From positions 6,533-70,532 of the forward strand of contig JAFDHF010000007.1 in assembly GCA_019308905.1 (NCBI GenBank): DNA of 64,000 nt, given 5' to 3'. Positions 5,915-45,329 of the stretch are shown here, piece by piece (positions within the stretch are counted from its first letter, which is position 1; each line of letters begins with the position of its first letter). The translations under genes were made by a program, and so were the position numbers. Source of the stretch: Deltaproteobacteria bacterium (GTDB lineage Bacteria; Desulfobacterota; BSN033; WVXP01). The notes under the pieces are model-generated. The model saw only the letters and a list, made by a program, of their open reading frames with translations, did not search any database and had not been told where the DNA came from.

Positions 5915-5924
5915 TAGCCTGTTC

Positions 5925-6062: not shown

Positions 6063-6086
6063 CCCCATGGGGTCCCCCATAGGGTC
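6063..6086. repeat. Tandem 12-mer CCCCATGGGGTC / CCCCATAGGGTC. The first copy sits inside the 14-bp palindrome GACCCCATGGGGTC (6061-6074).
   Basis: Read directly. About 110-135 nt upstream of the -35 box at 5948-5953. Confidence 0.5.
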
Positions 6087-6296
6087 AAATCTCGATTTGA
6101 GTCTTGTAACCGATTTATCTTGGACATTCGGTATGTTATGCTATTAGTAGTCCATCATGGGCAGGAAGGTCCTGCCTTGCCCATGTGGAACCCCTGTGAA
6201 CCTTTGGATTCCTGTCAGAAGAGGCTGAGCGGTTCTTTGACTGCCACCGGCCGACCCGGTGGATCGGAGAGAGGCAAGGGGCTGAACGTTCTCTTT

Positions 6297-8360: not shown

Positions 8361-8576
8361 CGACAACCTCTCAATGATGGGTTTGGATCGTAGTAGCGGT
8401 TGATTCTCTTCGAAAAATTCCGCCCTGCTTTGACTCTCCGTGCTTCACGGCTCTGCAGTCACGGACTGCCGGGCGGTAGCGGGCTCGGTCGAGTTGCGTG
8501 GCCTAGGAATCTTCCTCGGCGGAGGGTACAGGGAGAAAACTCGGGCTTCCTGCAGGCCGGTTAGGCCGATTCGGTG

Positions 8577-9950
8577 TCATTCACCAAGCAGATCCCTCAG
8601 TTTTTCTCTTGTCCTCTCGTGCATCGTTTTTGAACCCGACTCGGTCCATTGGGCCAGAGGCACCCTGCATAGGAGCGAGGGTGTCCACATCTCCGTGCGG
8701 GCGTGCTCGAGAGTGTGGTTGCTGCTTATGAAAGCCCCCTTCTTTCCCGCATCCCTGATGACACGGTAGGCCAGCCTTTCCTCGTCCACGGCGATCCCTC
8801 CGGCGATCCTCGATACCATACCTGCCAATTCGTCGCACAGGACGAGCATCTCGAGGGACCCGGTCTTGCCCGAGGATAGAAAACCGAGGTTGTGGGTCAA
8901 ACCGGTTCCCATGAGGACAGACATCACCATGTTCATTCCCGCCTCTGCGGCCGCCTGGGAATCGACGGTGTGCGCATCGGAGCAGCCCGAGCCGGACCAA
9001 CTCGGGACGCCTATGTCGGAGAAATAGTCCGCCGTGGCAAGGCAGACCAGTCCGTATTCCGGGCTCCCGTAGCAGATGCTGCCCGTCCGCATGTCCATGG
9101 GGATAATCGCCGCTCCCGACATGACCGGTGCTCCGGGGCCCTCCATCTGGTGGACTACGATTCCTCCCAGGATTTCCGCTGCCGTCTGTGCCAGTGCTCC
9201 GGCAAGGGTCATTGGGGCAGTTGCTCCCGGCATGACTGCGGGGAAGCAGACCACGGGAAGAGACCGCTTTGCGGCGAAACGTAGCCGTCTGCATGCCTCC
9301 TCGCCGAGTCTCAGGGGAGAAGTGGGGCCGGTGAGGTCCATCCCGAAAGGCCTCTGGGAGAGAGCCTGCCAGCCACCGGCCACGTCGGCGAGAAACTGCC
9401 AGACCTGTCCGGTCTCCTTCTCGTTGTGGCCGAGAAAGGCCAGGGGTTTGCCCGTATGCTCGACCATTGCCCGGACAGTCCGTATGGCCTCTTGCTGGGG
9501 GGGGACGTCACTCGGAGCCCCAAGCGACAGGACGAGATCTATATTGGAAAGCCTGTCGCATACCCGGGCCGTCCTGACAATATCCTCGAGGAGGAAGGGC
9601 CGGTGGACTCCCGTTCTGTAGTCCAGAATGTTGAGGCACCCTGTACCCGGACTGAACCTGGGTCTGCCGTCACCGGTGTTTACGGCCACGTTGCCGTTTC
9701 GATCGTACAGTGTCAGGCTGGGGGGAACAGTGGCAAGAGACCGCGCGACCAGTTCTGGTCCAAAGAGGAGGTATCCGTCTCCCCCCTCTCGGCATCCCAT
9801 CTCCTTCAATCTCTTTCGCGTCTCTTCGTCCTGGACGTCCATGCCGATCTCGCCCAGGACCCGGAGGGCTGTCCGGTGTATCTGTTCCGTTTCTTCTTCG
9901 GAGAGGACCCGCAATCTAAGGGAATTTGATTTCTTCATCACGCTGGCCAT
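8577..9950 (-). CDS. Divergent MttB-superfamily protein, non-pyrrolysine type (copy A)
   Basis: 457 aa uninterrupted ORF. Family-like N-terminus (LSEEETEQIHRTALRVLGEIGMDV) and PGATAPMTLAGALAQ segment. Its start overlaps the stop of MopB copy A by 35 nt. Confidence 0.75.
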   Translation of the reverse strand: MASVMKKSNSLRLRVLSEEETEQIHRTALRVLGEIGMDVQDEETRKRLKEMGCREGGDGYLLFGPELVARSLATVPPSLTLYDRNGNVAVNTGDGRPRFSPGTGCLNILDYRTGVHRPFLLEDIVRTARVCDRLSNIDLVLSLGAPSDVPPQQEAIRTVRAMVEHTGKPLAFLGHNEKETGQVWQFLADVAGGWQALSQRPFGMDLTGPTSPLRLGEEACRRLRFAAKRSLPVVCFPAVMPGATAPMTLAGALAQTAAEILGGIVVHQMEGPGAPVMSGAAIIPMDMRTGSICYGSPEYGLVCLATADYFSDIGVPSWSGSGCSDAHTVDSQAAAEAGMNMVMSVLMGTGLTHNLGFLSSGKTGSLEMLVLCDELAGMVSRIAGGIAVDEERLAYRVIRDAGKKGAFISSNHTLEHARTEMWTPSLLCRVPLAQWTESGSKTMHERTREKLRDLLGE

Positions 9951-12006
9951 CCTTTTCGATCCTTACAGGCACGGCCTTGAGCAGGGGGAACCCGCTGATG
10001 GGATCGTTCACGGAATCGTAGGTTATCAGATTCACGTTGGCCTCCTCCCAGCCGTGGGTGATCTGGAGGACCCCTGGAAGGATCTGCCTTGTATGGACGA
10101 TCTTTGCCTGGATCTCCACGGCACCGATCTCCGATACTACCCGGACCCGTTCTTTGTCTCCGATGCCCAATTTCGCGGCATCATCGGGATGGATCTCCAC
10201 CTCGGGCGCAGGCACGGCGGTGCGGAAGCGGTGAATGTTACGGTATCTCGAATGATAGAAGAGATACTTCCTTGCACCGGTGATGAGGACAAGGGGATAC
10301 TCCCTGCTCGGGTGGCTCATGTAGCGAGGCGGCTCGTAGACGGGCAGTTCCGGATAGCCGAGTTCTTTCAAATAGCGGGAGGCGAATTCGAACTTTCCCG
10401 TAGGTGTCGGAAATGGTTGTTCCTTGTACTTATTGTATCTCAAGGGGCTGTATACATAGCCCTCAGGGTGTTTCTTCAGATCGTCCAGGGAGATGCCCGT
10501 CGGTTCAAGGATCCAGCGGTTGACCTGCTCCTCGTTCTCCCAGGGGAAGTACCTCTCGCCGAAACCGAGCCGGTGGGCCAGATCCCTCCAGAAGGTATAC
10601 TCGTCCGTGACGCCTGGAATATCGAGCACCTTGGTAGTAAGGGTTACGAGCTGCCGGTCCGTGTGGTAGTGGAGTTCGGACCTTTCGAGGAAGGACGCTG
10701 CAGGAAGAACGTAGTGGGCCAGTTTCGCGCTTTCGGTGAGGAAGAGTTCCCTCACGACCAGAAGCTCGAGACTCGCAAAGGCATCACGCACCTTTCTTGC
10801 ATTGGGGTTGGTGAGCACGGGGTTCGCCCCCGTCACGATGAGCCCGCGCAAGGGGTAGTCTCCCTTGCCGAGAATATAGTCCATGGCCGTCATGGTGTGG
10901 CATTCCCGGCGGAACCGGTAGAGGACGGGGTATCTGTCCGCCCCGATAGGGTTTTGATCGAGGAGGGGGAGCTCATCATAGAGTGTCAGGCTCCGCCCTC
11001 CCATCCCTTGCGGCCAGGTCTGTCCTCCCTTTACGTCGATGGCTCCGCAGAGACCGCCCAGACAGGCTACGACCCGTATGTTGTTTATCCCGTTCTCGTG
11101 GTGTTCCAGGCCGTTTCCCACGTAGTTGATGACTCTCGGCTTGTTTTGAACGATCATCTGGGCGATCTCCACGAGCCTCTGCCCCTCGATTCCTGTCTCT
11201 TTCTCGACGAACTCGGGGGTGAACCTCTCGGCGTATTCGGCAAATCCGTCAAAGCCTATCGAGTACTTCTCGACAAAGGGCCGGTCGTAGTTCCCGGTCT
11301 GGATGAGGTGGTTGGCCAGCCCCCAGGCCAGAGCGCCATCGGTGCCCGGAAAGGGCTGCACGAAGATATCCGCCTTATAAGCCACAGAGACCAGACGGGG
11401 GTCGATGACGACGAGCTTCGCCCCTCTGGCCCGGGCGTCGGCGATGAGCCTCATAAAAGGTGGATGCGAGAAGGGGAGGTTGGTTCCCCAGAGAACGATG
11501 AGGTCGGCGTTTTCAAAGTCGGGGCAGCCGTTCCAGTAACCCTGGACGAGTCCGTACCCGATGTAGCGGCCGTTGAAACACTCCGAGTCGTTCGAAAAGT
11601 AGTTGGGAGATCCAAAGGCATGGACGAACCGCCTGGCATATTCCTCCTGCTGAAAAAACCCGAGCGCTTCCCCCTTCCAAACCCCCATCGATCTCGCCCC
11701 ATAGGTCTTCTTGATGGCCTCCATTTTTGCGGCGATTTCATCGAGTGCCTGGTCGTAGGAGATCTCGCGGAAGGTTCCGTCCGGCTTTTTCTTTAGCGGC
11801 TTAAGGAGGCGGTCCTCTTTGTAGACCAGGTCCGCCGCGGCATGTCCCTTGTGGCAGATCCTGCCCCGGTTCTGTGGGTGATCTTTGAATCCCTTGATCT
11901 CCGCTATCCTGCCGTCCCTGATATGGACATCAACCCCGCAGCGCATGTCACATTGGCGGCAGAGGGTCTGGACCGTCCCGTTTCTCACGACTGTTTCTCC
12001 CGTCAT
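9916..12006 (-). CDS. Molybdopterin (Mo/W-bis-PGD, MopB family) oxidoreductase, cytoplasmic, copy A
   Basis: Close paralogue of 6297-8360 with the same CRQCDMRCG...C motif. The ATG at 12006 (MTGETVV...) follows GAGGAA and lies after the ferredoxin stop at 12018. The ORF track's start at 12135 would overlap the ferredoxin. Confidence 0.9.
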   Translation of the reverse strand: MTGETVVRNGTVQTLCRQCDMRCGVDVHIRDGRIAEIKGFKDHPQNRGRICHKGHAAADLVYKEDRLLKPLKKKPDGTFREISYDQALDEIAAKMEAIKKTYGARSMGVWKGEALGFFQQEEYARRFVHAFGSPNYFSNDSECFNGRYIGYGLVQGYWNGCPDFENADLIVLWGTNLPFSHPPFMRLIADARARGAKLVVIDPRLVSVAYKADIFVQPFPGTDGALAWGLANHLIQTGNYDRPFVEKYSIGFDGFAEYAERFTPEFVEKETGIEGQRLVEIAQMIVQNKPRVINYVGNGLEHHENGINNIRVVACLGGLCGAIDVKGGQTWPQGMGGRSLTLYDELPLLDQNPIGADRYPVLYRFRRECHTMTAMDYILGKGDYPLRGLIVTGANPVLTNPNARKVRDAFASLELLVVRELFLTESAKLAHYVLPAASFLERSELHYHTDRQLVTLTTKVLDIPGVTDEYTFWRDLAHRLGFGERYFPWENEEQVNRWILEPTGISLDDLKKHPEGYVYSPLRYNKYKEQPFPTPTGKFEFASRYLKELGYPELPVYEPPRYMSHPSREYPLVLITGARKYLFYHSRYRNIHRFRTAVPAPEVEIHPDDAAKLGIGDKERVRVVSEIGAVEIQAKIVHTRQILPGVLQITHGWEEANVNLITYDSVNDPISGFPLLKAVPVRIEKDGQRDEEIKFP

Positions 12007-12017
12007 CTTGGGATTCC

Positions 12018-12494
12018 TCACTGGTGGACCACAAGGCATCTCATCAAACGGTTGTCCACGATTCTCCTCCTCAGATCTGACAGATCCGCGGCCTCGATGT
12101 AGTTCAGGGCATGAGGCATGCAGAACATGATGCATCTCGGTTCGCCTTCACAGAGGTTGCACTTCTGGATCACATGCCTTTCTGTATTGAAATGGATATT
12201 CCCGAAGGGGCAGGCCATCATGCACATCTTGCATCCTACACAGCGGTCCTGGTCGACCACGATCGCCCCGGTGCGGGGGTCTCGGCTGAGGGCACCGCTG
12301 GGACAGATCTCCATGCAGGGTGGTGTTTCACACTGGGAGCAGGTCAGAGTCGAAATGAACCGTTCGCCGGGATAGAGGTTGACCCGAATGTTTGAATCCT
12401 CTCGCCTGAACCCCCCTGTTCCGTAAAGGGAACACGCCTGTTCGCAGTTCCGGCATCCGATGCAGCGGTCGAGGTCGATGTAGATTATTCTCAT
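12018..12494 (-). CDS. 4Fe-4S multi-cluster ferredoxin (DmsB/HybA-like electron-transfer subunit)
   Basis: Motifs CIGCRNCEQAC, CSQC..PPCMEICP, CVGCKMCMMACP and CNLC...C. ATG at 12494 preceded by AGGAGA. Confidence 0.9.
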   Translation of the reverse strand: MRIIYIDLDRCIGCRNCEQACSLYGTGGFRREDSNIRVNLYPGERFISTLTCSQCETPPCMEICPSGALSRDPRTGAIVVDQDRCVGCKMCMMACPFGNIHFNTERHVIQKCNLCEGEPRCIMFCMPHALNYIEAADLSDLRRRIVDNRLMRCLVVHQ

Positions 12495-12534
12495 GGGCTC
12501 TCCTGTTGAGACCGGGAATTCCCCGGACCCGGTT

Positions 12535-13776
12535 CTAGCTCCTGCCAACCAGAGGGCGGAGTAATCTCAGGGGGTGCACCCGCAGGTCCTCGGTCCGGGG
12601 TATCTCTCTCTTTCTGAGTATGCAGGATCTCAGGATGCCAAAAGAGGCGACGTCCTCGGCTCGGCCTATTAGGACTCCGCCCACAGGAACTCTACGGTGG
12701 AGCAGGAGCTTAACGTAGACCCCGCCTTCCCTATCGAGGTAGGCTTGTTCATCTATTTCGGGAGATTTCCTCACCATTCCCATGGATGCCACCGTCAAAT
12801 GGAAGAATTCGCTCACATTGCCGCTGAGGCTGCCCCGATAGTGAACCTCCCTCCCCGCCATATTGCTCCCGGCAATTGTGCCGTGCTCTACGGCAGTTGT
12901 CCAGAGAGCATGGGTTGCCCACCGATCTCCGAGAACAGAGGGCCCCTGGGCGACATCACCGGCTGCATAGATTCCCGGTACACTCGTCTCCATTGTGTCG
13001 CTCACCAGGATGCCCCTGTCGGTGCGAACCGAGTCGGTCTCCAGGAAAGCGATGTTGGGCCGCACCCCTGCTGCCACGACCACCATGTCCACATCGAAGG
13101 GACGCCGGTCCGCCGGGTAGACCCTGTACTGGCCCCTCGATCTCTTTTCCACCCTTTGGACAGCCGTTCCCGTCAGGACGCGGACTCTCTCGCGGCGCAT
13201 TGCCGTCTCCACCATTTCAGCCCCTGTTCTATCGAGACTCTGGGGCATGACATGGTCCATTATTTCAGTGATCGTCACCTCCAGATTCCTCTGCACCGCA
13301 ACCCATGCAAGCATGAGGGAGATAAAGCCTCCCCCCATGATCATGAGGCGCCTGTTCCCCTTGAAGCACCTGCCGACTCGGAGGGCATCTTCCATGGTCC
13401 AGAAATGCCCTATCTCCTCGCTGTCCAGGCCTCGGACAGTGGGCTTCACAGGTGAGGAACCCGAGGCGATCAGCAGCCTGTCAAAGGGGATCGTCTCGCC
13501 CGTATCGAGATAGAGCCTTTTTTGGGAAAGGTCCGTTCCTACAACCGACCGGCCCAACAGAGTCCTGACGTTGAACCGGTCATAGAAACGGGTGGACCGA
13601 TAGAAAAGACCCTGGATATCCGTCCTCCCCAAAACAAGATACGGGAGAAGAACACGGGAGTACGGCGGGTGCTTTTCAGAGGAGACCAGGAGAATCGCAC
13701 TTGTCCGGTCATGCTTGCGGAAGGCCTCGATGGCGCTCACCGCCGCGGCACCGCCTCCGATGATAACCACTCTCAT
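12535..13776 (-). CDS. FAD-dependent pyridine nucleotide-disulfide-family oxidoreductase (NAD(P)H-linked)
   Basis: N-terminal dinucleotide fold MRVVIIGGGAAAVSA, second Rossmann motif LMIMGGGFISL, and GIYAAGDVA near the C-terminal third. ATG at 13776. Confidence 0.88.
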   Translation of the reverse strand: MRVVIIGGGAAAVSAIEAFRKHDRTSAILLVSSEKHPPYSRVLLPYLVLGRTDIQGLFYRSTRFYDRFNVRTLLGRSVVGTDLSQKRLYLDTGETIPFDRLLIASGSSPVKPTVRGLDSEEIGHFWTMEDALRVGRCFKGNRRLMIMGGGFISLMLAWVAVQRNLEVTITEIMDHVMPQSLDRTGAEMVETAMRRERVRVLTGTAVQRVEKRSRGQYRVYPADRRPFDVDMVVVAAGVRPNIAFLETDSVRTDRGILVSDTMETSVPGIYAAGDVAQGPSVLGDRWATHALWTTAVEHGTIAGSNMAGREVHYRGSLSGNVSEFFHLTVASMGMVRKSPEIDEQAYLDREGGVYVKLLLHRRVPVGGVLIGRAEDVASFGILRSCILRKREIPRTEDLRVHPLRLLRPLVGRS

Positions 13777-14158
13777 CGTTCCTGCCACAGGACCCCTCAA
13801 CAAGAAGGAGCAGGCCCTTTGGGTTGTCTCCCTATGTGAAACGAGTTTCCTTTATGTTCTACCAGAAAGTACCAGCCCTCTCGGTGAGTTGTCAAGGCCG
13901 GCTCCAAGAATATCAACCCAGGAAGTGAGAATGGCATTCGGGGCCTCGCCCTAGGGGTAGCCAACCGCTCGTGCGATGTCGCCAGGGGATAGGGGCGTGA
14001 TACTGTCAGACAGAAGGGGTCTTGGACTCGAAGACTTCCACGGATGCTTGATTCAAAGCCGGGAGACCCCGGCGACAAGATTCACTTGACATCTCTGCAC
14101 GCCTGTGGAAATCTTTGAAGCACGTGACTCTGCAGTATACGGAGAGGGGTGCCAGGAG

Positions 14159-29069: not shown

Positions 29070-29345
29070 TCATCCGTACCGGTACTGTACGCCGAACTCG
29101 CCCCTGGGATATCTCCATGTGACGGCCCCGTAAATACACGCGATCAGGCAGGTTCCGCATTCGAGGCAGCCGGCGAATTCAACCTGCATTTTTCTGCTCT
29201 CCTCGTTCAGTTCGTAAAGATGGGCCGGACAGGCGTATATGCAGAACCGCTCCCTGCAGATCATGCATTTTTCCTGGTCGAGGGTGATGTGGCTTTCCGT
29301 ATCGTTCTTGAAGGCATCGACGGCCAGTTTTTCCTGGATTTCCAT
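29070..29345 (-). CDS. fixX: Ferredoxin-like protein FixX
   Basis: 91 aa. Motifs CMICRERFCIYACP and CLECGTCLIAC. Lies immediately after fixC. Confidence 0.9.
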   Translation of the reverse strand: MEIQEKLAVDAFKNDTESHITLDQEKCMICRERFCIYACPAHLYELNEESRKMQVEFAGCLECGTCLIACIYGAVTWRYPRGEFGVQYRYG

Positions 29346-29362
29346 GGCGATTCCTTCAGTGG

Positions 29363-30652
29363 CTAGATACCCCGTAGGCTCCAGAGATCCTTGATCCCCC
29401 GGAGGGTGAGGATATTTCTTCGAAGTTCCTTGAAAACGGTGGAGGAGAGCCTCTCTTTCGGTTTTTCGTCTATCTCCATCACCTTTTCTAAAAGGTCACA
29501 GACGGACTGGGGGTAGAGGGAAAAGAGTCTCGGGTTTTTCAGTATCTCGGCGGAACGTCTGAATGTCTCCATATCCCTGATGATCACACTCCGCTTCAAG
29601 AGGTATTCATAGTGGGAGAGGGTGGAAGCCGAGAAATCGTTCGACTGTGCGGCACGCTTGATCGTTTCTGCGGCCAGCACACCTGAGATCATGGCGTACT
29701 CCATGCCGCGGACCGTGACGAGCATGTTGAGGCCGAATCCGGCGGCATCGCCCACCACGAGCATTCCATCGCGCACAAGGCCTGCCAATCTGCGAATTCC
29801 GCCCTCCGGAATGAGATGAGCCGAGTACTCTACGGTCTCCCCTCCCTCGACAAGCCGTCTGATCTCGGGGCGTTCTTTGAATGCATCGAGGAGCCGGTAT
29901 GCTTCGATACCGTTCTGCAACCGGGTCAAGGGTGCGAGGCCGAGGACCATACCCAGGGAGATGGTCTCCTTGTTGGTGTATATGAAACCGCCGCCCATCA
30001 TACCTCCGGTGATAGCTCCCACAAAGAGTTGGGCCGCTCCCTGGCCCGGTTCCAGGTTGAAGCGGTCCTCGATCTTCCGGTCCCCCAGGTGGATGATCTC
30101 CTTGTACCCCACGGCGAGATCCTCAGGCTCGAAGTCCCTCCTAAGGCCGGCTCTCTCTGCCAGGAAGGAGAGCACGCCGTCGGCAGCCACAACGACCCGC
30201 GCAGGGATCTCTTCATCTCCTGCTGTTACTCCCACCACCCTCTTTCCATCCATGAGCAGGTCGTCTACCCGCTTCTGGGGGATAACGAAGCCCCCTCTCT
30301 CGGCCACCTTCTCGGAAAGCCACCGGTCGAACCTAGCCCGGAGGATGGTGTAGCTCGGATAGGGGCGCTGGTCGCGCCTGTCGCTGTAATGGTCGATGGA
30401 TGTTGAGTTCGTCCTGCCCAGCAGCGTGAGTCTTTCCCGTACCACGTGCCTTTCCAGGGGGGCCTCGTCCCACAGGTCGGGGAGAAGCCTCCGGACGGGT
30501 TCGAGATAGATTCTGCCGCCCGTGACGTTCTTGCTTCCAGAGAAGTCTCCCCTCTCGAGCACCAGCACCGTAAGTCCCGAGTCGGCCAATCCATAGGCAC
30601 AGGAGAGACCTGCCAGGCCTCCTCCCACGATTACTACATCGATTCTTTCCAC
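29363..30652 (-). CDS. fixC: FAD-dependent ETF-quinone-oxidoreductase-like protein FixC
   Basis: VVIVGGGLAGLSCAYGLA dinucleotide fold, 429 aa, located between etfA and fixX. GTG start. Confidence 0.9.
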   Translation of the reverse strand: MERIDVVIVGGGLAGLSCAYGLADSGLTVLVLERGDFSGSKNVTGGRIYLEPVRRLLPDLWDEAPLERHVVRERLTLLGRTNSTSIDHYSDRRDQRPYPSYTILRARFDRWLSEKVAERGGFVIPQKRVDDLLMDGKRVVGVTAGDEEIPARVVVAADGVLSFLAERAGLRRDFEPEDLAVGYKEIIHLGDRKIEDRFNLEPGQGAAQLFVGAITGGMMGGGFIYTNKETISLGMVLGLAPLTRLQNGIEAYRLLDAFKERPEIRRLVEGGETVEYSAHLIPEGGIRRLAGLVRDGMLVVGDAAGFGLNMLVTVRGMEYAMISGVLAAETIKRAAQSNDFSASTLSHYEYLLKRSVIIRDMETFRRSAEILKNPRLFSLYPQSVCDLLEKVMEIDEKPKERLSSTVFKELRRNILTLRGIKDLWSLRGI

Positions 30653-30718
30653 TTCGACCTCTGCTCTACCGGGGGGTGTCGCCTGACCGGTTCAGCGTTT
30701 CAGCCCCTGCGAGTCTAC

Positions 30719-31705
30719 TCAGACCTCGTCCTTCATCTTCGTGATCTCCTCCTTGAGGGCCGGGATCACCTCCATCATGTCTCCCACCAGGGCATAGTCC
30801 GCGTAGTTGAAGATCAAAGCGTTGGTATCGGTGTTGACGGCCACAACCGTCTTGCAGGTCTGGATCCCGAGGACGTGGTGGATGGCCCCTGACAGGCCGA
30901 AGGCAAAGTAGAGCCGCGCCGAGATGTTCTTGCCGCTCTTGCCGATCTGATCGTTGACATCCCACCACCCGTTGTCCACCACAGCCCGGGTGACACCGAT
31001 GGTGGCTCCCAGGGCATCTGCCAGGTCCTGAACGGCCTTGAAGTTGCCCGGGTCCCTGATGCCTCGACCCACGCCGACAACCACCTCGGCTTCAGCCACG
31101 TCGACTTTCTCCTGGGTGGTCTTCTCAACCCCCTCGACTTTCTGCCGGATCTCGCCCCCCTCGAGACCTGTGGTGTCCCGGATCACCTCAGCCCTCTTGT
31201 TCATCTTTTCCAAGGTGAACGTGTTGGGCCTTACCGTTGCCATCTGAGGGGAGGCCTCGGGGATTGAGACCTGGCAGAAGACCTTTCCTCCGTATATCGG
31301 GCGAGTGGCAAGGAGTCTCCCCTCGTCGCCGATTGCCAGACCAGTACAGTCGGGGATGAGACCGGTTTTCAGACGCACCGCGACCCGTGGAAAGAGGTCT
31401 CTGCCCGTGGAGGTGGAACCGGCCAGCAGGACAGCGGGACCGTGCTTCCTGACAAGGGAGGCGAGAGCGAGTGTGTAGCCGTCGCTGGTGTAGGCTGCGA
31501 GTCTCTCATCTTCGGCAAGGTAGACCCGGTCAGCGTAAGACCGGAGATTCTCCAGTGCCGAATCCGTGGGCCTTCCCAGGAGCACGGCTCCAACAGGTCC
31601 CCCGATCTCCTTTGAGAATCCATCAGCCGCGCATAACAGTTCGAGGCTGACCTTGCGGATGGCGCCCTCTACGCTCTCAACAAATACCCAAACCTCTCCG
31701 CCCAT
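30719..31705 (-). CDS. etfA: Electron transfer flavoprotein alpha subunit (EtfA/FixB)
   Basis: C-terminal ETF-alpha signature (AVNTDTNALIFNYADYALVGDMMEVIPAL). AAAAGGAGA RBS. Confidence 0.93.
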   Translation of the reverse strand: MGGEVWVFVESVEGAIRKVSLELLCAADGFSKEIGGPVGAVLLGRPTDSALENLRSYADRVYLAEDERLAAYTSDGYTLALASLVRKHGPAVLLAGSTSTGRDLFPRVAVRLKTGLIPDCTGLAIGDEGRLLATRPIYGGKVFCQVSIPEASPQMATVRPNTFTLEKMNKRAEVIRDTTGLEGGEIRQKVEGVEKTTQEKVDVAEAEVVVGVGRGIRDPGNFKAVQDLADALGATIGVTRAVVDNGWWDVNDQIGKSGKNISARLYFAFGLSGAIHHVLGIQTCKTVVAVNTDTNALIFNYADYALVGDMMEVIPALKEEITKMKDEV

Positions 31706-31754
31706 GGATATCTCCTTTTATAGGATACGGTCTTTCGGTTTGAAGACACCCCCT

Positions 31755-32537
31755 CTAGAGGGCCTTCGCCTCTTCCCTGAGGAGTCTCACAAGCCTTCTC
31801 ACGTTGTCCGGGAAATCCTCCTCGATTCTCATCGCCTTTGACCGCTTGGGTGGGGGGAGATACCTCAGAATCCTGACCTTCCGGCCTCGTTCACCCACCT
31901 CGGCAGGGTCGACGCCCAGGGCTCCGAGATCGAGCTTTCTGACCTGGACCTTCATCGCCTTCATCATGCCCATTACCTGGGGAATTCTCGGGGTGTTCAG
32001 GCCCTTTTGAGTCGTCAGCACGGCGGGAAGAGGACAGAGGAGGATCTCCCTGCCCCCCTCGACCTGGCGAGCCACCCGTGCAGACCTGCCGTCTTCAGCG
32101 ATTTCGAGTCCCAGGATCGAACTCACGTGGGGGAGATCGAGCAGTTCTGCCACGGCAGGGCCGACTATGGCGGCATCATCGTCCATGGCCTGGCGGCCAC
32201 AGAGGATGACATCCCACGGTTCCTTCTTGAGGAAGGCCGCCAGTACCCTTGCGATTCCAAATGAGTCGGACCCCTCCAGGGCCGCATCACTGATCTGGAC
32301 CGCATGGTCCGCCCCCATGGCTATCCCTCTTCTCAGGGCGTCGATTCTCCTGTTGTCCACGGTCACGACGGTAACCGTGCCGCCGAACTTCTCTTTCAAC
32401 TTCACGGCCTCTTCGATGGCTATCTCATCGAAAAAATTCGTGAAATACTTGTTCTCGATCTCCAGTTCCGAATCAGACCGGATCCTGACAATCGCTTCGG
32501 TATCGGGTACGTACTTGACAAGGACACAGATATTCAT
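31755..32537 (-). CDS. etfB: Electron transfer flavoprotein beta subunit (EtfB/FixA)
   Basis: N-terminal MNICVLVKYVPDTE and 260 aa. GGGAGGAAG RBS. Confidence 0.93.
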   Translation of the reverse strand: MNICVLVKYVPDTEAIVRIRSDSELEIENKYFTNFFDEIAIEEAVKLKEKFGGTVTVVTVDNRRIDALRRGIAMGADHAVQISDAALEGSDSFGIARVLAAFLKKEPWDVILCGRQAMDDDAAIVGPAVAELLDLPHVSSILGLEIAEDGRSARVARQVEGGREILLCPLPAVLTTQKGLNTPRIPQVMGMMKAMKVQVRKLDLGALGVDPAEVGERGRKVRILRYLPPPKRSKAMRIEEDFPDNVRRLVRLLREEAKAL

Positions 32538-32555
32538 CCAGTCTTCCTCCCGAGG

Positions 32556-33746
32556 TCAAACCGCCTGTTTTTTCAGGTACATTCGCCCGAGGTAATCCTT
32601 GATCACCTCGTGGGTTCCCCCTCCATAGAGGGCGTACATTGCGTTCTTCCAGTATCTCTGGACAGGGTATTCGGTGCAGAAGGCATTCCCACCATAGACC
32701 CGCATGGCCTCTTCCACGGTTGTTATGCACATCTCGGTGGCATGGAACTTTGCGGCCATACACAGTTCCACGAGCTCCCTGAAGCTGATACCGCAGGTGT
32801 CTGCGTTTTCGATCATCCAGGCGCACTTGTAACACTGTGTCCTGGCGGCTTCGTACCAGGCCCAGCACCTCGCGAATTTCTCCCGGATAAGCTGGTAGGT
32901 TCCGATGGGATTGCCGAAGGCGATCCTGTTGTTCGCGTATTCGCCCGTATCCTCGAGGGCGCACTTGGCGATGGCAAGAGCGCTCATCCCCGTCATGATC
33001 CTGACTTCATTGAGTATCTCGTTCGCATGACGGACGCCCTTGCCGAGTTCTTCACCCAGGAAGTTCTCATCAGGGATGAAAACGTCGTCGAAGACGAGTT
33101 CCCCTGTGATGGCACAACGGCCGCCCACCTTGTGAAGAATCTGGCCCGGCACAAAGCCGTCTCGATCTTCTGTCTTCTTCTCCACGAGGAAGAAGTCGAG
33201 TCCTTTGAGCCCCTTGGAAGGGTCGGTGGTGGCCAGCACGGTTGCCACGTCCGCCAGGGGCCCCTGGGTTACCCACTGCTTTGTTCCGTTGATCCTCCAT
33301 CCCCCGGGGACCTTGGTTGCCCGGGTCCGTGTGCCTGCCAGGTCAGATCCTGATTGGTCTTCCGTAAAGCAGATGACGCATTTCTTTTCCCCCTTGATGG
33401 CCGGAACAAGGATTCGTTGCTTTGTTTCTTCGGTGGCGAATCGTTTGATAAAATAGGTACCCATCAGGACCTGCATGGCCGTCGCCATGGCAAAACCCAG
33501 GGAGCCCCTGAAGAGCTCCTCATAGAAGATCATCTGGTTGATCACCGGCTGGTTCATGCCCCCGTATTTCTCCTCGTGACGAAGGCCGAGCCAACCGAGA
33601 GAGGCGAATTCCCTCCATATGTCCTCCGGCCACTCCTCGGTATCGTCGAGTTCCTGCGCCCTGGGGATGATCAGGCGTTCCACAGTGTCCCTGATGGTCT
33701 GTCTGAAAAACTCCTGCTCCTCTGTGAAACTGAAATCGAGGGCCAT
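32556..33746 (-). CDS. Acyl-CoA dehydrogenase, CaiA-like (the YQLIREKFA segment resembles E. coli crotonobetainyl-CoA reductase, from memory)
   Basis: ACAD fold with FTEEQE, TEDQSGSD and FGNPIGTYQLIREKFA. GGAAGGAGG RBS. Confidence 0.88.
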   Translation of the reverse strand: MALDFSFTEEQEFFRQTIRDTVERLIIPRAQELDDTEEWPEDIWREFASLGWLGLRHEEKYGGMNQPVINQMIFYEELFRGSLGFAMATAMQVLMGTYFIKRFATEETKQRILVPAIKGEKKCVICFTEDQSGSDLAGTRTRATKVPGGWRINGTKQWVTQGPLADVATVLATTDPSKGLKGLDFFLVEKKTEDRDGFVPGQILHKVGGRCAITGELVFDDVFIPDENFLGEELGKGVRHANEILNEVRIMTGMSALAIAKCALEDTGEYANNRIAFGNPIGTYQLIREKFARCWAWYEAARTQCYKCAWMIENADTCGISFRELVELCMAAKFHATEMCITTVEEAMRVYGGNAFCTEYPVQRYWKNAMYALYGGGTHEVIKDYLGRMYLKKQAV

Positions 33747-33940
33747 GAACTAAGCCTCCTTCCTGATCTCCATACCTCCGACACGGCCAGTCATCATCAT
33801 GGAGGCGCGGAACACCCTGAACACAGCCGGGCGGCCTCAGACAACAGGAACCGGCCTCTTCGGAGAGGCTTCTCGGCAGGAATGGCAGCCTCAGAAAATC
33901 CGTAATGCCGGCCCCACGGCCGTCTTTCAGTGATCATTAC

Positions 33941-35140
33941 CTAGATGATCTGGCGTTCCCTCAGGTTCCTGAGTTGTTCGGCACTGTAGCCCAGGACGCC
34001 CCCATAGATCTCCTCGTTATGGCCTCCGAAACGGGGAGGAAAGCTAAGGGTGAAATCGACTGATCTGAGGTAGTCTGTCGTCACAGGGGGCGGGGAAAGG
34101 GTGAGGCGTGTCCCTGTGACAGGGTCCTCGGACCGGATGAGAACGTCTCTTATGTGAGGGTCCTGGGTAACCTCGTCGATGTTGTTGACCTTGGCAACCG
34201 GAATCGTCGCCCTCACGAAGATATCGATCCACTCTCTCGTTGTCTTTGTCTTTGTCACCTTTTCGATCTCTCTGTTCAGCTCTTGGACATCCGCTATCCG
34301 TCCCGCGTTGGTCTGGTACTGCTCCCTTGCCAGATGTTTGAACTCGGCCATGGAGACCAGAGTGTTCCACTGCCTCTCGTTTCCGATGGCAAGATAGATA
34401 TACCCGTCTTTGGTGGCATAGACCGACACGGGTGCAAAGAATTCATGGGTATTGCCCCTTCTGGAGATCCTCTTGCCGAAGCTCCTGGTGAGGGTTATGG
34501 GCACCGTACACCACGAGACCGTGCTCTGGAACATGGAGACATCGATGCGGCTCCCCTCCCCGGTTACAGCACGCTTGTACAGGGCCTTCATCAGTTCCCC
34601 AAAGGCGTGTTCACTCGCTCCCATGTCTGCAAGAGGGATTCCCACCACCTGGGGCGGTCCTCCCTTTTCCCCGGTCAGTTCCATCAGCCCGCCTCTCGCC
34701 TGGAGGATTGGATCATAGGCCGCCTCATTGCTGGCAGGGCCGAAACCTGTCAGGCCGAGCCAGATTATGTCCTTCTTGACGGTCTTCAGGATCTCGTAGT
34801 CGATCCCGAGCTTGCCGTAGTTTCTGGGGAGTTGATTGGTGGTGAATATGTCCACATCGAGCTCGATGATGAGCTTTCTGAGAATCTCCTGTCCCTCGGG
34901 CTTGGAAAGATCGAGGGTGATCGCCTTCTTGCCGGAGTTTATGGCCAAGAAGTACGAGAGCATCCGGTCCTCCCCAAGCACGTTGTCACCGATTCGCCTG
35001 TTGGGGTCGCCGTGTACAGGGTGCTCCAATCTGATAACCGTGGTACCCTGGTGAACGAGTCTCCAGGTCAGATAGGGAAGGGTTGTGGCCTGCTCGAGGG
35101 AGAGGACCGTCAGGTTTTTGAAAAGGTCGATTCGGCTCAT
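33941..35140 (-). CDS. Family III CoA-transferase (CaiB/BaiF/Frc family)
   Basis: About 400 aa. N-terminal L..L.VL.L....PY pattern, central GIPLADMG (Asp region) and GGHNEEI near the C-terminus. Confidence 0.85.
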   Translation of the reverse strand: MSRIDLFKNLTVLSLEQATTLPYLTWRLVHQGTTVIRLEHPVHGDPNRRIGDNVLGEDRMLSYFLAINSGKKAITLDLSKPEGQEILRKLIIELDVDIFTTNQLPRNYGKLGIDYEILKTVKKDIIWLGLTGFGPASNEAAYDPILQARGGLMELTGEKGGPPQVVGIPLADMGASEHAFGELMKALYKRAVTGEGSRIDVSMFQSTVSWCTVPITLTRSFGKRISRRGNTHEFFAPVSVYATKDGYIYLAIGNERQWNTLVSMAEFKHLAREQYQTNAGRIADVQELNREIEKVTKTKTTREWIDIFVRATIPVAKVNNIDEVTQDPHIRDVLIRSEDPVTGTRLTLSPPPVTTDYLRSVDFTLSFPPRFGGHNEEIYGGVLGYSAEQLRNLRERQII

Positions 35141-36791: not shown

Positions 36792-37061
36792 TCACGCCTG
36801 TTTTTCGGCCTTGTTATCTCCACCTGGAGCCCCTGCCGGCTTTTCCGGATGTTTTTCCTTCGATTCGGCCTTCCGCCTGGTTTCCGAGGGGTAGTCGTTC
36901 ACGTAGAATCCGGCTCCCTTGAGAATGAAGTTTGAGGGTGACAGGATTCTCTTTACCCTGCCATGACAACTCGGGCAATCGGCTTTGTAGTCTTCATGGA
37001 TTCCATGGAGGACTTCGAAGATTTTTCCGCACACCACACACTGATACTCGTAGACCGGCAT
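36792..37061 (-). CDS. FmdB-family zinc-ribbon protein
   Basis: MPVYEYQCVVCG ... CPSCHG (two CxxC pairs) with a charged tail. AAGGGGAG RBS. Confidence 0.85.
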   Translation of the reverse strand: MPVYEYQCVVCGKIFEVLHGIHEDYKADCPSCHGRVKRILSPSNFILKGAGFYVNDYPSETRRKAESKEKHPEKPAGAPGGDNKAEKQA

Positions 37062-37088: not shown

Positions 37089-37943
37089 TCAGGCCGTTGC
37101 CGCCTGAAGGCCGTATTCCAACTCGTTCCTCAGCTTCTTCAGAGCCTCGTTTTCGATCTGTCGAATCCTCTCGCGGGAGAGATTAAGGGAATCCCCGATC
37201 TCTTGGAGGGTCGCCGGATGATGAGACATGATTCTCTTTTCTATCACGTACTTTTCCTTGGAACTAAGACACCGGAGGGCTCGGCGGACTTGTCCTTTCC
37301 GTTCTCTCTCCTCCTCCATCTGGCCGACAAGCTCCTCTTGATTCGGCCTCTCGTCGGCAAGGAGATCCAGGTGGGTGACTTGAGAATCCTCATCCACAGC
37401 CGAATCCAGCGAGAAATCCCTGAGACTCATCCGTTGTTCCATCTCGACTATGTCGTGGTCTTTCACATCCAGAGCCTCTGCGAGAGCGTGGATATTCTTT
37501 TCGTCCCCTTTCGACGAGCCGAGGAGCCTCTTGGTCTTTCCGAGACTGTAGAAGAGCTTCTTCTGGGTCTGAGTGGTACCTATTTTGACCAGACTCCAAG
37601 TCTTGATAATGAAATTCTGGATATATGCGCGGATCCACCAGATCGCGTAGGAGATCAACCGGTACCCCCGCCTGGGATCGAACTTCTTAACCGCCATCAT
37701 GAGTCCGATGTTGCCTTCCTGGATGAGGTCGAGAAGCTTCACGCCGTATGATCTATACTCCAAAGCCACCTTCACCACGAATCGGAGATTGGAGGTAATC
37801 AACCTGTGGGCAGCCTCGATGTCGCCCTTCTCCCTGAACCGTGTGGCCAGCTCGAACTCCTCATCCGCACTGAGCAATGGGAACTGGTTGATCTGTGTCA
37901 GATAGAGCTCCAGGGAGCTTGTGGTAACAGGCAGATTGTGCAT
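37089..37943 (-). CDS. rpoH: RNA polymerase sigma-32 factor RpoH
   Basis: Sigma70 regions 2-4 with an RpoH-box-like segment (TTQTQKKLFYSLGKTKR). ATG at 37943 after GGAGGAG. Confidence 0.88.
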   Translation of the reverse strand: MHNLPVTTSSLELYLTQINQFPLLSADEEFELATRFREKGDIEAAHRLITSNLRFVVKVALEYRSYGVKLLDLIQEGNIGLMMAVKKFDPRRGYRLISYAIWWIRAYIQNFIIKTWSLVKIGTTQTQKKLFYSLGKTKRLLGSSKGDEKNIHALAEALDVKDHDIVEMEQRMSLRDFSLDSAVDEDSQVTHLDLLADERPNQEELVGQMEEERERKGQVRRALRCLSSKEKYVIEKRIMSHHPATLQEIGDSLNLSRERIRQIENEALKKLRNELEYGLQAATA

Positions 37944-37990
37944 GGCTTTTCCGTCTCCTCCAGGCATCGGGATAGATGAGACCCAAAAGA

Positions 37991-38017
37991 TTAGCACTCA
38001 GTTAATATGAGTGCTAA
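37991..38017. promoter_or_regulatory. CIRCE element (HrcA operator) TTAGCACTC-N9-GAGTGCTAA
   Basis: Perfect match to the CIRCE consensus. Lies 48 nt upstream of the rpoH ATG and directly abuts the -10 box. Confidence 0.9.
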
Positions 38018-40684: not shown

Positions 40685-42922
40685 ATGTCCAAATCTCTCG
40701 TCGTTGTGGAATCCCCTACAAAGGCCAGGACACTGAGCAAGTTTCTCGGGCATGACTTTGTCGTGAAGGCCACGGTCGGGCATGTCAAGGATTTGCCGGA
40801 GAACGATTTGGGTATCGATGTGGAGCACGGCTTTAGGCCCAGGTATGGGGTGATCCATGGCAAGAACAAGATCATTCAGGAGCTGAGGAGAGCCAGCCGG
40901 GGAGCTTCCAGAGTCTACCTGGCTCCGGATCCGGACAGGGAGGGAGAGGCTATTGCCTGGCACATAAAGGAGGAACTCAACGGGGATAGCCGTCGCTTCT
41001 ACCGGGTCTTAATCAATGAGATCACAAAGCGGGGGGTTCTCGAAGCGATCCGGAACGCCGGAGAACTCCGGCGCGGTCTGTATGAGGCCCAGCAGGCTCG
41101 GAGGGTTTTGGACCGTCTGGTGGGATACAAGATCAGCCCGCTGCTATGGCAGGAGATCAGGAGGGGGTTGAGTGCAGGCCGCGTGCAGTCCGTGGCCGTG
41201 CGTCTCATCTGTGACCGGGAGAGGGAGATCTGGGCTTTCACACCCGAGGAATACTGGACGATCGAAGCCCTACTCAAGAGCCGAGCCCATCCCGAGCCTT
41301 TCAAGGCGAAACTGTCGAGGTTTGGGGGTGAGAAGCCGAAGATCTCCAATAAAAAAGAAGCGGAGGAGATCGTTGCGGCTTTGGAAGGAGCCGGATTCAC
41401 GGTGAAGAGGGTAGAGGAGAAGGAGAGCCTTCGAAATCCTCCGCCCCCTTTTATTACCAGCAAGCTCCAGCAGGAGGCTTCCCGGAGGCTCCGGTTCTCG
41501 CCCAAGAAGACCATGCGGATAGCCCAGGACCTTTACGAGGGGATCGAGCTCGGCGACGAGGGGCCTGTAGGACTGATAACCTATATGCGTACAGACTCTC
41601 CCCGGGTGTCGAATGAGGCGCTGGAGGCGGTGCGCCGCTTGATTGCCGACCAGTACGGGGATGCCTATCTGCCGGCAAGGCCCCGTGTCTACAAGAGCAA
41701 GAAGGGGGCCCAGGAGGCCCACGAGGCGATCCGTCCGACCGACCTCCGGTACGAACCGAAAAAGGTGAGCCCCTACCTGACCAGTGACCAGGAGAGGCTC
41801 TATCGGCTCATCTGGAACCGCTTTGTCGCCAGTCAGATGAGTCCGGCCGTGTTCCAACGCAGGGTGGTTGACATCGAGGCCGGTGAGGCGATCTTCAGCG
41901 TGACCGGGTCTACCATGAAGTTCCCGGGTTTCATGGCTGTTCAGGGGACGGAAGAGCTGTCAGGAGAAGAGAAGGTCCATGTTCCGCCCCTCACCGAGGG
42001 CGAGGTTCTGGAACTCTTGCCTCCCCTTGAGCGGGAACAGCACTTCACCCAACCGCCGCCGCGGTTTTCCGAAAGCACTCTCGTCAAGGAACTCGAGGAC
42101 AAAGGGATCGGGCGGCCCTCAACCTATGCCACCATTCTTACGACCATCCAGGAGAGGGGCTATGTTCGCCTCGATCAGGGGAAATTCCGTCCTACGGAGC
42201 TTGGTCTTCTGGTGAACGATCTCCTTGTCAGGAGTTTTCCGGGCATCCTCAGTGTGGAATTCACGGCCAGGATGGAGGATGTACTGGATGCGATCGAGGA
42301 AGAGAAAATCGAGTGGGCCAAGGCCATGGAGGATTTCTACGGCAGGTTCAGCAGGAGCCTGAAAAGAGCCGAGAGTCTCATCCCGCAGTTGAAGAAGGAG
42401 GTGACTGCCACTCCCCTTGTATGTGATCAGTGCGGGAGCCCCATGGTGATCCGGTGGGGCCGGAAGGGTTTTTTCCTGGCCTGTGCCGCATATCCCAAGT
42501 GCCGGAACAGCTACGACTTCGAGCGGAATGAACGGGGTGAGGTGGTGGTCCGGCAGGCCGAGGAGGGGAGCCACGGTACTTGCCCGACCTGCGGGAGTCC
42601 CATGCTCCTCAAGCGGGGTCCCTTCGGAGAGTTCTACGCGTGTTCGAGATATCCCCAGTGTAAGACGACGAGACCGAAACATCTCGATATTCCATGTCCC
42701 CGGGAGGGGTGTGACGGCTTCATCATCGAGAGGAGGTCCCGCAAGGGGAAGAGATTCTATGGATGCACCCGCTGGCCTCAATGTGATTTTGTCATCTGGG
42801 ACCCCCCGGTGGGCCGGCCCTGCCCCCAGTGTGGGGCTCCCTTCATGACCGAGAAACGTACCCGGAAGGGGAATGTCATCCTTTGCAAAAAATGCGGGTA
42901 CAAGGCAGAAGGGGATTCATGA
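40685..42922 (+). CDS. topA: DNA topoisomerase I with C-terminal zinc-ribbon repeats
   Basis: TOPRIM N-terminus [13 protein letters not shown], active-site region YMRTDS, and four Cys4 ribbons at the C-terminus. Confidence 0.95.
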
Positions 42923-44265
42923 CCCCAAGTGGGAGGTTCTATTTGGCAGGAGAGGAAAGGCTTCTGATCATAGGAGGAGGGCTCGCCGGATGTGAGGCTG
43001 CATGGCAGGCTTCTCGGCGGGGGATTAGGACGGTATTGTACGAGATGAAGCCCCACAGGTTTTCACCGGCTCACAAGTCGCCTCTCCTTTCAGAGTTGGT
43101 CTGCAGTAACTCCCTGAAGTCCGAATCCCTGGATAAGGCGGTGGGGCTCCTCAAGGAGGAGATGCGGAGGCTTGGATCCCTCATCATCCGAGCGGCGGAC
43201 CAGACTCGAGTGCCCGCGGGTGTATCTCTGGCAGTCGATAGGGAGGAATTCTCACGGTTTGTGACGGAGAGCCTCGAGAGAGAGGGGCAGGTTGAGATCA
43301 TCCGCCGGGAGATTACGGAAATGCCGGCCGGAGGTGCCGTTATTGTCGCCACAGGGCCGCTGACCTCGGAGCCTTTTGGCCGGAGCCTCTCAGAGATGAC
43401 CGGACGAAAGGCACTCTATTTCTACGATGCGGTCTCTCCTATCGTGCTCGGTGACTCCATTGATTTCGCCGTCGCTTTCAAAGCGTCCCGGTACGGTCGG
43501 GGAGGGGACGATTATGTCAACTGCCCCATGACCCGGCAGCAGTACTACGATTTCGTGGATGCCCTGGTTCGGGCGGAAAGGGTTCCGCTGAGGGAGTTTG
43601 AAAAGGAGGCGTACTTCGAGGGATGCATGCCCGTTGAAGAGCTGGCCCGCCGCGGGCGGGAGACCCTGGCCTTTGGATCGCTCAAGCCGGTGGGTCTCGT
43701 CGATCCGAGGACAGGAGAGAGACCCTTTGCCGTGGTTCAGCTGAGACAGGATAATCGAGAAGGCACCCTTTACAGTATGGTCGGATTCCAGACCAAGCTC
43801 AAATGGGAGGAGCAGAAGCGCGTTTTTCGCATGATTCCGGGCCTTCAAGACGCGGAGTTTGTCCGGCTTGGAAGCGTCCATCGAAACACCTTCGTTAACT
43901 CCCCTCTGCTCCTCAGGGAGAGTCTTCAGCTCAAGGGTCATCCCCGGATATTCCTGGCCGGCCAGATTACCGGGGTTGAAGGGTACGTGGAATCTGCTGC
44001 CATGGGACTTCTGGCTGGGATCAGTGCTTCTTTGTGGATGAAAGGGGAGCCCATGGTCACTCCTTCACCCGCCACGGCCATAGGATCTCTGCTGCGATAC
44101 GTAACTCATGCGAATCCTGCCACGTTTCAGCCCATGAACGCCAATTTCGGGCTGTTCCCCCCGCTGGAAACGGGGGAGAAAGGGAGGCAGAGGCGGAGGC
44201 TGCTGGCCTTGAGAGGGCTCGAAGAGATCGACCGGTGGAAGGCCTCGGTTGACAGACACCCGTAG
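42919..44265 (+). CDS. trmFO: Methylenetetrahydrofolate--tRNA-(uracil54-C5)-methyltransferase TrmFO (Gid)
   Basis: Motifs [24 protein letters not shown] and [12 protein letters not shown]. Its ATG overlaps the topA TGA (ATGA). Confidence 0.92.
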
Positions 44266-44331: not shown

Positions 44332-44583
44332 ATGGGAGATAGGGGAAAGGGAAAGGAAGGGGCCGTGGAAGGACAGAGCTGCTTCAAATGCGGGCGGTAC
44401 CTGCCGCCTGGAAGCCTCAAGTACGTGGTCCAGATAAAGGTCTATGCCGATTTTGATGGGTTCCTTTCTGTCGCCGATGAGGACCTGGACGGGGAGATGG
44501 ATCGGATCCTCCAAGAGATCGAGTGGGCCAATCCCGAGGATCTGGAACGAGAGGTGTACGAGGAGATGGGATTTCTCCTCTGA
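44332..44583 (+). CDS. Small acidic CxxC protein. The conservative call ends at the in-frame TGA at 44581; a possible Sec-recoded form extends to 44661 (see findings).
   Basis: 83 aa with CFKCG followed by an acidic helical region. The frame stays open for 25 more codons after the TGA and begins there with KGC. Confidence 0.5.
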   Translation: MGDRGKGKEGAVEGQSCFKCGRYLPPGSLKYVVQIKVYADFDGFLSVADEDLDGEMDRILQEIEWANPEDLEREVYEEMGFLL

Positions 44584-44657
44584 AAGGGATGCCGTGACAG
44601 GTTTGTCCGTGAGACAAACGAGAGAAGGATCCCGAACGGGAAGGGGATGATGATCCA

Positions 44658-45329
44658 ATGACCCCTTCGGACCTCGCCGGCGGAGCCTGCAAGACCAACA
44701 GGAAAAGATTCGCCGAGCCTCCTGCGGTCCGGATTCCTTCCGTGGCTGAGTGTGGCCGGATCATGAAGAGTAGCGGAATGATGCCCAATATCAGGCGTCA
44801 TTCCTTTCTGGTCGCCAGGGTGGCCAAGGCCCTTGCGGAGGCCTTGAATGAGAAAGGGGCCTGTCTCAGTATTCCCCTGGTTGTTGCAGGAGCCCTGCTT
44901 CACGATATTGCCAAGACCCGTTCCCTTCGCGAGGGGGGGGACCATGTTGAGATGGGCCGAAGAATGGTCCTGGAAATGGGCTATCCAGAAGTGGCATGGA
45001 TCGTGGGACACCACGTCGATTCGGGTCCGGAAATCGCCGGTTCCATCGACGAGGCAAGGGTCGTCAACTACAGTGACAAGCGGGTTCAACACGACAGGGT
45101 CGTTCCCTTGGAGGACAGGCTTGCCGATCTCATGGTCAGGTACGGTAAGACCCCCGAGAAAAGAGCCCGCCTGGAGGAGATGGCAAGAAACATTAAGAGC
45201 CTCGAGAGGGAGATATTCTCGAGGATCCGCCTCTCTCCGGGAGACCTGGAATCGATGATTCGGAACTCACGGCCTCTTTTTCTTGACCGGGTAAAGGGGC
45301 CTCCTGCAAGAAGAAGAAGAGGGAGGTGA
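44658..45329 (+). CDS. HD/HDIG-domain phosphohydrolase
   Basis: Motifs HSFLVARVA, LLHDIAK and GHHVD. Confidence 0.82.
   Translation: MTPSDLAGGACKTNRKRFAEPPAVRIPSVAECGRIMKSSGMMPNIRRHSFLVARVAKALAEALNEKGACLSIPLVVAGALLHDIAKTRSLREGGDHVEMGRRMVLEMGYPEVAWIVGHHVDSGPEIAGSIDEARVVNYSDKRVQHDRVVPLEDRLADLMVRYGKTPEKRARLEEMARNIKSLEREIFSRIRLSPGDLESMIRNSRPLFLDRVKGPPARRRRGR

Follow-up and report, generated by a model that had tools for sequence, protein, structure and literature searches.

The stretch of DNA analysed here (hereafter the window) comprises 64,000 nucleotides (nt) of contig JAFDHF010000007.1 of a deltaproteobacterium (assembly GCA_019308905.1, positions 6,533 to 70,532 of the forward strand), and all coordinates below refer to it. 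The gene of interest, a candidate selenoprotein gene, lies on the forward (+) strand between trmFO, a member of the GIDA family (42829-44265, +; PF01134, 2.3e-99), and a gene (44658-45329, +) whose identity as an HD-domain gene was given by its Pfam match (PF01966). Its reading frame contains a TGA at 44581-44583, which a first-pass annotation had proposed to be read as selenocysteine (Sec). That annotation had described an open reading frame (ORF) from ATG 44332 to this TGA with a CFKCG motif, followed by 25 further open codons in the same frame and a terminal TGA overlapping the start of the HD-domain gene. The motif was found at 44380-44394, the frame does stay open for 25 codons up to the TGA at 44659-44661 (+), and this stop overlaps ATG 44658. 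The ORF from ATG 44332 is also present, but GTG 44365 is the likelier start. ATG 44332 is not conserved, and some relatives, e.g. L003, have an in-frame stop at that place. A start codon (ATG or GTG) was found five codons ahead of the first cysteine in 17 of 18 relatives, behind a purine-rich Shine-Dalgarno region, and purines of the GGAAAGGA or GAAAAGG type are conserved 5' of the start. The corresponding region read from the window sequence is GGAAAGGAAGGG (44350-44361, +). Because the start codon is conserved in relatives and in-frame stops occur at the position of ATG 44332, the gene is taken to begin at GTG 44365, where gene callers also begin the truncated product P0001.

With this start, the candidate selenoprotein coding sequence spans 44365-44661 (+) and contains 98 codons plus the stop, and its read-through translation aligns end to end with 98-residue Cys homologues. 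The product would probably carry Cys6, Cys9, Sec73 and Cys76. The first knuckle, C-F-K-C (44380-44391, +), contains Cys6 and Cys9 and is followed by Gly10 to give CxxCG; the second, U-K-G-C (44581-44592, +), would begin with Sec73 at the in-frame TGA. The 25-codon C-terminal extension after this codon (44584-44658, +) reads KGCRDRFVRETNERRIPNGKGMMIQ. Elsewhere in the window TGA is a normal stop, as seen in the DUF493 gene, which terminates with TGA exactly at the end of the Pfam profile. TGA being an ordinary stop for other genes of the window, the open frame is not explained by a reassigned genetic code.

The read-through product, with U written as C, was used as the query for a homologue search, which returned 25 clusters, and homologous DNA was drawn from GTDB genomes, JGI metagenomes and individual contigs. 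In 22 of the 25 closest clusters the annotated protein has ...LL as its last residues, directly ahead of the TGA. Past the TGA position, P0002 continues as ...LF-C-KECRDRFVRETT... and P0003 as ...YL-C-KGCRDRFVRDTT... The codon aligned with the TGA is TGC or TGT in 60 distinct homologous genes, and the Cys column at residue 73 is invariant in the family. The homologues thus have Cys exactly where the first-pass annotation had placed the TGA, that is, at the first Cys of a second CxxC pair (UxxC). TGA itself was found at the aligned codon in 15 distinct sequences, namely the window (identical to L082) and, from JGI, ENA, Logan and GTDB genomes, L001, L012, L013, L015, L018, L020, L022, L023 and L083-L088. 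Here L082 is a near-identical contig of an independent NCBI assembly (GCA_019309355.1) which has the identical TGA.

Comparison with homologues, which the first-pass annotation had named as a check on its proposal, also showed that the extension with its K-x-C-R-D-R-F-V motif is retained. All 15 TGA forms stay in frame after the TGA as [KQ]-x-C-[RK]-[DE]-[RG]-F-[VA]-R-E, and the complete extension of 23-25 codons up to the stop is present in all of them except L018, which is truncated by the end of its contig. No frame-breaking indel was found in the 15 sequences, which also conserve the place of the terminal stop. At the internal codon neither TAA nor TAG occurs, although all three stop codons (TGA, TAA and TAG) are used at the ends of these genes. 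In the alignment every residue of the extension has its counterpart in the C-termini of the 60 Cys forms, among them the invariant R and D and the second Cys, which is likewise invariant.

The proportions of synonymous (pS) and nonsynonymous (pN) differences were computed by the Nei-Gojobori method among 14 TGA forms. The 66 codons upstream of the TGA gave a pN/pS of 0.35. Codons +1 to +6 after the TGA gave a pS of 0.71 and a pN of 0.16, so that these codons, with a pN/pS of 0.23 at such a high pS, are translated and under purifying selection. In codons +7 to +12, which contain the hairpin described below, pS fell to 0.06; the same codons in the Cys forms gave a pS of 0.70 (all 60 genes) or 0.41 (the six closest). 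Synonymous change in the hairpin is thus suppressed roughly ten-fold, in the TGA forms only. In the TGA-form hairpin Arg is always encoded by CGU and Glu always by GAG, and the third positions in the stem-loop are fixed apart from two TTC variants (TTT/TTC, Phe), while in the Cys forms the loop Arg is freely swapped for Cys, His, Asp, Glu or Lys. A constraint at the RNA level that is found only where the codon is TGA is what would be predicted for a functional Sec insertion sequence (SECIS) lying inside a coding sequence.

The hairpin is located at 44601-44619 (+) and is a candidate SECIS of the bacterial type (bSECIS). It consists of a 7-bp stem, GUUUGUC (44601-44607) paired with GACAAAC (44613-44619), and the loop CGUGA (44608-44612). 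The features listed for it in the first-pass annotation, i.e. a stem of 7 bp, a loop starting 24 nt past the TGA and G as the second loop base, were all recovered. According to the published description of bSECIS elements (PMC13188914, Fig. 2 legend), the apical loop has 3-9 nt, the upper stem 4-16 bp and the distance from UGA to loop is 16-37 nt. One or both of the first two loop bases are G, mostly with G or U as the next base, and the minimum free energy (MFE) is -7.5 kcal/mol or lower (PMC13188914). The window hairpin has a 5-nt loop with G-U at loop positions 2-3, and its MFE is -7.6 kcal/mol when the 35-nt core is folded and -18.5 kcal/mol when 60 nt are; the earlier suggestion that it has bSECIS geometry therefore agrees with these values in loop, stem, spacing and MFE. 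The loop CGUGA is invariant in the 15 TGA forms, and four of the seven stem pairs never vary. One pair occurs as U-A (5 sequences), U-G (6) or C-G (4), with nonsynonymous changes on both arms (Val to Ala, Thr to Ala), and in some TGA-form hairpins a bulged U or C changes the pairing register. Neither RNAalifold nor pair counting showed a conserved lower stem. The downstream gene is Peptidase_M54, 100-180 nt away, in L083 and L086, and the hairpin is unchanged there. Because the hairpin is kept when the downstream gene changes, it goes with the TGA rather than with the gene next to it, and the idea that it serves the downstream HD gene was rejected.

On this comparative evidence, the segment 44365-44661 is very probably one gene for a 98-residue selenoprotein in which the UGA at 44581-44583 is decoded as Sec. 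Decoding would follow the ordinary bacterial route: SelB carrying Sec-tRNA(Sec) would bind the hairpin at 44601-44619 and deliver Sec in competition with release factor 2, and translation would run on for 25 codons to the TGA overlapping the start of the HD-domain gene. We infer the involvement of SelB and tRNA(Sec). The lineage here, Thermodesulfobacteriota, is named among the most selenoprotein-rich bacteria (PMC13188914). No entry matching the small-protein family turned up when the selenoprotein literature and the table of the 2026 catalogue were searched, a literature search with the assembly accession had no result, and a scan of all long genes of the window for TGA-split frames gave no second convincing selenoprotein. 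The predicted mechanism is the ordinary bacterial Sec-UGA/SECIS one, and the protein family, which is uncharacterised, appears to be new to the catalogued selenoproteins.

Several results weigh against this reading. Neither the 64-kb window nor the related loci showed selA, selB or selD on inspection of motifs and ORFs, and no tRNA or tRNA(Sec) was found by ARAGORN in the window or in the 15 Sec-form loci. Open stretches of at least 20 codons after a TGA stop are common among the genes of this G+C-rich window. The 91-nt region around the site folds no better than 19 of 200 shuffled sequences (z = -1.39). Covariation in the hairpin is weak, with no pair changed on both sides relative to the commonest one and with the observed score reached by 80 of 500 column shuffles, and RNAalifold retains only 5 pairs (-3.8 kcal/mol). 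No Rfam family matched when the whole window was searched at the gathering score. A similar hairpin is retained in the close Cys forms, and function can therefore not be proved from the hairpin sequence by itself. Around the site, the Rfam search gave only chance-level hits (DUF3800-X, fluoride, snoR79) far below the cut-offs. Since covariation is weak, the structural case rests on the synonymous-site result. On the side of the Sec reading, a 7-bp Watson-Crick hairpin with bSECIS geometry follows only 15 of the 2019 TGA triplets in the window (0.74%), a proportion that rises to 7.3% when G-U pairs are allowed. The features of the single sequence go only weakly beyond chance, and it is the comparative data that are decisive.

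Three other explanations of the TGA were weighed against these data. If it were a genuine stop, the product would have 72 (or 83) residues and only one CxxC, and the similarity beyond the TGA would be due to something other than translation, e.g. a leader or regulatory RNA for the next gene. Gene callers annotate the gene in this way in 22 clusters, an open stretch such as the 25 codons after the TGA is common in the window, and a truncated product probably exists as well because Sec insertion is never fully efficient. However, codons +1 to +6 show a pN/pS of 0.23 with near-saturated synonymous change in frame with the upstream ORF, and the extension lines up position by position with the C-termini of 60 Cys forms. 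The 15 sequences lack frame-breaking indels and never show TAA or TAG at the site, and the hairpin persists when the downstream gene changes. Termination at this codon as the whole explanation is hence very improbable. The first-pass annotation had named a sequencing error and a TGC-to-TGA mutation as alternatives, and a single base change is indeed enough to turn TGC or TGT into TGA. An origin of the TGA by a sequencing or assembly error, or by a recent inactivating mutation leaving a pseudogene, is refuted by the comparative data and deserves practically no weight: the identical TGA is present in L082 (GCA_019309355.1), 14 other distinct and strongly diverged sequences of one clade carry TGA as well, and the frame downstream is under purifying selection.

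The remaining explanation accepts that the UGA is read through but not as Sec, either by a near-cognate or suppressor tRNA inserting Trp, Cys or Arg, or by hairpin-stimulated read-through independent of SelB. It draws on the fact that the comparative data show continued translation and not the residue inserted. Against it, all homologues have Cys at the aligned position, and Cys is the classic partner of Sec. The hairpin, whose small apical loop carries G-U and stands 24 nt from the UGA, has the geometry of a SelB-type bSECIS. Moreover, TGA is a normal stop for other genes of the window, and the lineage has large selenoproteomes (PMC13188914). We consider non-Sec read-through highly unlikely, and decoding of the UGA as Sec is the reading adopted in what follows.

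The history of the Sec codon was examined in a neighbour-joining tree (Sec column masked, no bootstrap) which included 14 distinct full-length Sec forms. In this tree the Sec forms make up one clade inside the 98-residue subfamily, nested among Cys forms. Its nearest relatives are L016 and then L002, L003, L004, L014 and L017, all with Cys, and the remaining 103-residue subfamilies are all Cys as well. Synonymous divergence among the Sec forms is near saturation, and for this reason the TGA seems to have been maintained for a long time. These facts suggest a single Cys-to-Sec change followed by long maintenance. Among the Cys forms nearest to the Sec clade, L002, L003, L014 and L016 have a SECIS-like hairpin at codons +7 to +12, e.g. 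GGTTTGTC-TGTGA-GACAACC. The hairpin of such close Cys forms is recognisable but decaying, with the loops UGUGA or CAUGA, and in L016 (GTG...CAC) a compensatory swap from G-C to C-G was seen. It could either predate the Cys-to-Sec change or mark revertants from Sec to Cys.

A profile search collected at least 541 clusters of the family at E <= 0.001. Its members have about 100 residues and two conserved knuckles, CxxCG close to the N-terminus and [C/U]-K-x-C-R-D, with which a C-terminal helix begins in the models described below. Among the 120 clusters listed, all that carry a source name are called "hypothetical protein", none has a Pfam domain, and the source names are those of Thermodesulfobacteriota or deltaproteobacterial metagenome-assembled genomes (MAGs). 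Twelve positions are invariant in 122 members: C6, C9, G10, Y20, F30, P57, E61, E67, C73, C76, R77 and D78. The last residue is a near-invariant His (...I/L-H-stop) in more than 90% of the 122 members; the window protein (44656-44658) and the Sec forms L001, L012, L085, L087 and L088 end in Gln instead. The terminal His could be a further metal ligand. Neither the window protein (U replaced by C) nor the distant Cys forms matched any Pfam or NCBIfam family, with only zinc-ribbon or zinc-finger noise below threshold (Pfam zinc-ribbon scores at E 0.04-0.13, below the cut-off). The selenoprotein models of the 2026 catalogue, including NF041197 and TIGR02605, gave no match.

Structural information came from AlphaFold models of two Cys homologues, which have low confidence (mean predicted local distance difference test, pLDDT, 57.7 and 65.8). 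Both show a knuckle, a strand, a helix and a strand, followed by a helix that has the second CxxC at its N-terminus, and the modelled topology resembles a treble clef or zinc ribbon. When the models were compared with the PDB by Foldseek, the best hit was the ribosomal protein eS26, which was not significant (E 0.3-3, template-modelling score of about 0.37) and is a lead, not evidence. This small ribosomal protein binds zinc via four cysteines with similar spacing. A sequence-profile search of the PDB gave nothing below E 0.19. The label "zinc-ribbon-like" given to the small protein in the first-pass annotation is plausible but unproven, as there is no significant Pfam match and the AlphaFold models have low confidence.

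The gene was also compared with known systems. With E. coli genes of the fdhF/fdnG type, which have a SECIS inside the ORF (the bSECIS model of Zhang and Gladyshev, via PMC13188914), it shares the in-frame UGA aligned with Cys and the downstream stem-loop within the coding sequence with its small G-U apical loop, which in the window stands 24 nt from the UGA of a UxxC motif in a Sec-rich lineage. It differs in that its protein family is unrelated to the listed selenoproteins, the hairpin is short (7 bp) and without a conserved lower stem, and SelB binding is putative. The dual CXXC motif small selenoprotein NF041197 is likewise a small two-CxxC protein with Sec in some members, found in deltaproteobacteria/Thermodesulfobacteriota; however, its listed Sec motif is RxU or GxU, whereas that of the window family is L-U-K-x-C, and no match to NF041197 was obtained at E <= 1 for the window protein with U replaced by C, nor at E <= 10 for the window protein and 14 relatives. 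The FmdB zinc ribbon (TIGR02605 / Zn_ribbon_8, PF09723), of which UxxU selenoprotein forms exist, also has two CxxC knuckles where Sec can replace Cys. In contrast to FmdB, the window family has no match to the hidden Markov model, and its knuckles are not adjacent but lie about 63 residues apart, with a strand, a helix and a strand between them. As a positive control, the FmdB-like ORF of the window itself scored 5.3e-15 against Zn_ribbon_8. Finally, Cys4 knuckle sites (zinc ribbon, treble clef such as eS26, rubredoxin) share the CxxCG...CxxC arrangement and, in the AlphaFold models, the second pair at the N-terminus of a helix, but all similarities are below significance (Foldseek, Pfam) at a pLDDT of 58-66, and metal binding is putative.

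The genomic context of the small gene (X) is conserved. In 63 of the 78 related loci the gene immediately upstream, in the same orientation, is trmFO, the other 15 having at most 610 nt of upstream sequence, and the order dprA-topA-trmFO-X-(HD or M54 peptidase)-HAD-DUF493 recurs. The gene order of the window, the small gene followed by the HD gene, was also found in L082, L084, L085, L012 and L001. In L005, L006 and L028-L037 (the 'EDPLSRGEGPYPAG' Cys subfamily) the distance between trmFO and the small gene is about 550 nt, compared with 50-150 nt elsewhere, so that a further small gene or a regulatory region could fit there. In the window, the longest ORF of trmFO, which starts at GTG 42829, shares its first 94 nt (42829-42922) with the end of topA. 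As trmFO was called as a protein of 448 aa in the near-identical NCBI contig L082, its translation probably begins some 30 codons past the listed GTG.

As to function, the four Cys/Sec residues probably come together in a single centre that binds a metal or is redox-active, with knuckles of the zinc-ribbon, treble-clef or rubredoxin type. Sec typically arises at redox-active cysteines (PMC1794560; PMC13188914), and for this reason a chemically active centre is likelier than one with a purely structural role. That the protein works with TrmFO is speculation drawn from synteny alone. A specific but rather doubtful proposal is that Sec is a ligand of a split four-Cys centre which is redox-active, through a selenylsulfide/dithiol couple or a rubredoxin-like Fe, instead of being a structural zinc site, and which could serve the flavoenzyme TrmFO, e.g. 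as its physiological reductant or as a protective partner in anaerobes.

Selenoprotein genes are routinely mis-annotated as truncated ORFs, and here at least 22 database clusters are cut at the UGA, losing the second half of the conserved motif. The family would extend the catalogue of the bacterial selenoproteome (about 111 families and subfamilies in 2026) and correct the annotation of Thermodesulfobacteriota MAGs. The Sec residue would single out the Cys that matters chemically in a widespread uncharacterised protein (at least 541 clusters) strictly linked to trmFO, and thereby offer a starting point for work on its function. The roughly ten-fold synonymous suppression, confined to the Sec clade, is a possible criterion for detecting SECIS elements embedded in coding sequence.

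Some other features of the window were recorded. The FmdB-type zinc-ribbon ORF mentioned above (89 aa; 36792-37061, -) lies downstream of a sigma-factor-like gene (37089-37997), and both of its knuckles have Cys (CVVC, CPSC); the 2026 catalogue includes UxxU selenoprotein forms of the FmdB family. The region 4345-12135 (-) contains two MttB-family methyltransferase genes (4345-5802 and 8577-9950), each followed by a molybdopterin oxidoreductase gene (6297-8366 and 9916-12135) with a gap of about 130-210 nt, and the long ORFs showed neither TGA nor TAG in frame. The MttB/Mo-enzyme pairs are adjoined by a 4Fe-4S protein gene and a pyridine-nucleotide-disulfide oxidoreductase gene (12018-13803), and the duplicated pairing of MttB with a Mo-enzyme is unusual. 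The region 29070-35140 (-) holds what we take, by eye from the N-terminal parts of the ORF translations, to be an electron-bifurcation-type cluster, presumably comprising a FixX-like ferredoxin, a FixC-like flavoprotein, EtfA, EtfB, an acyl-CoA dehydrogenase and a family III CoA-transferase.

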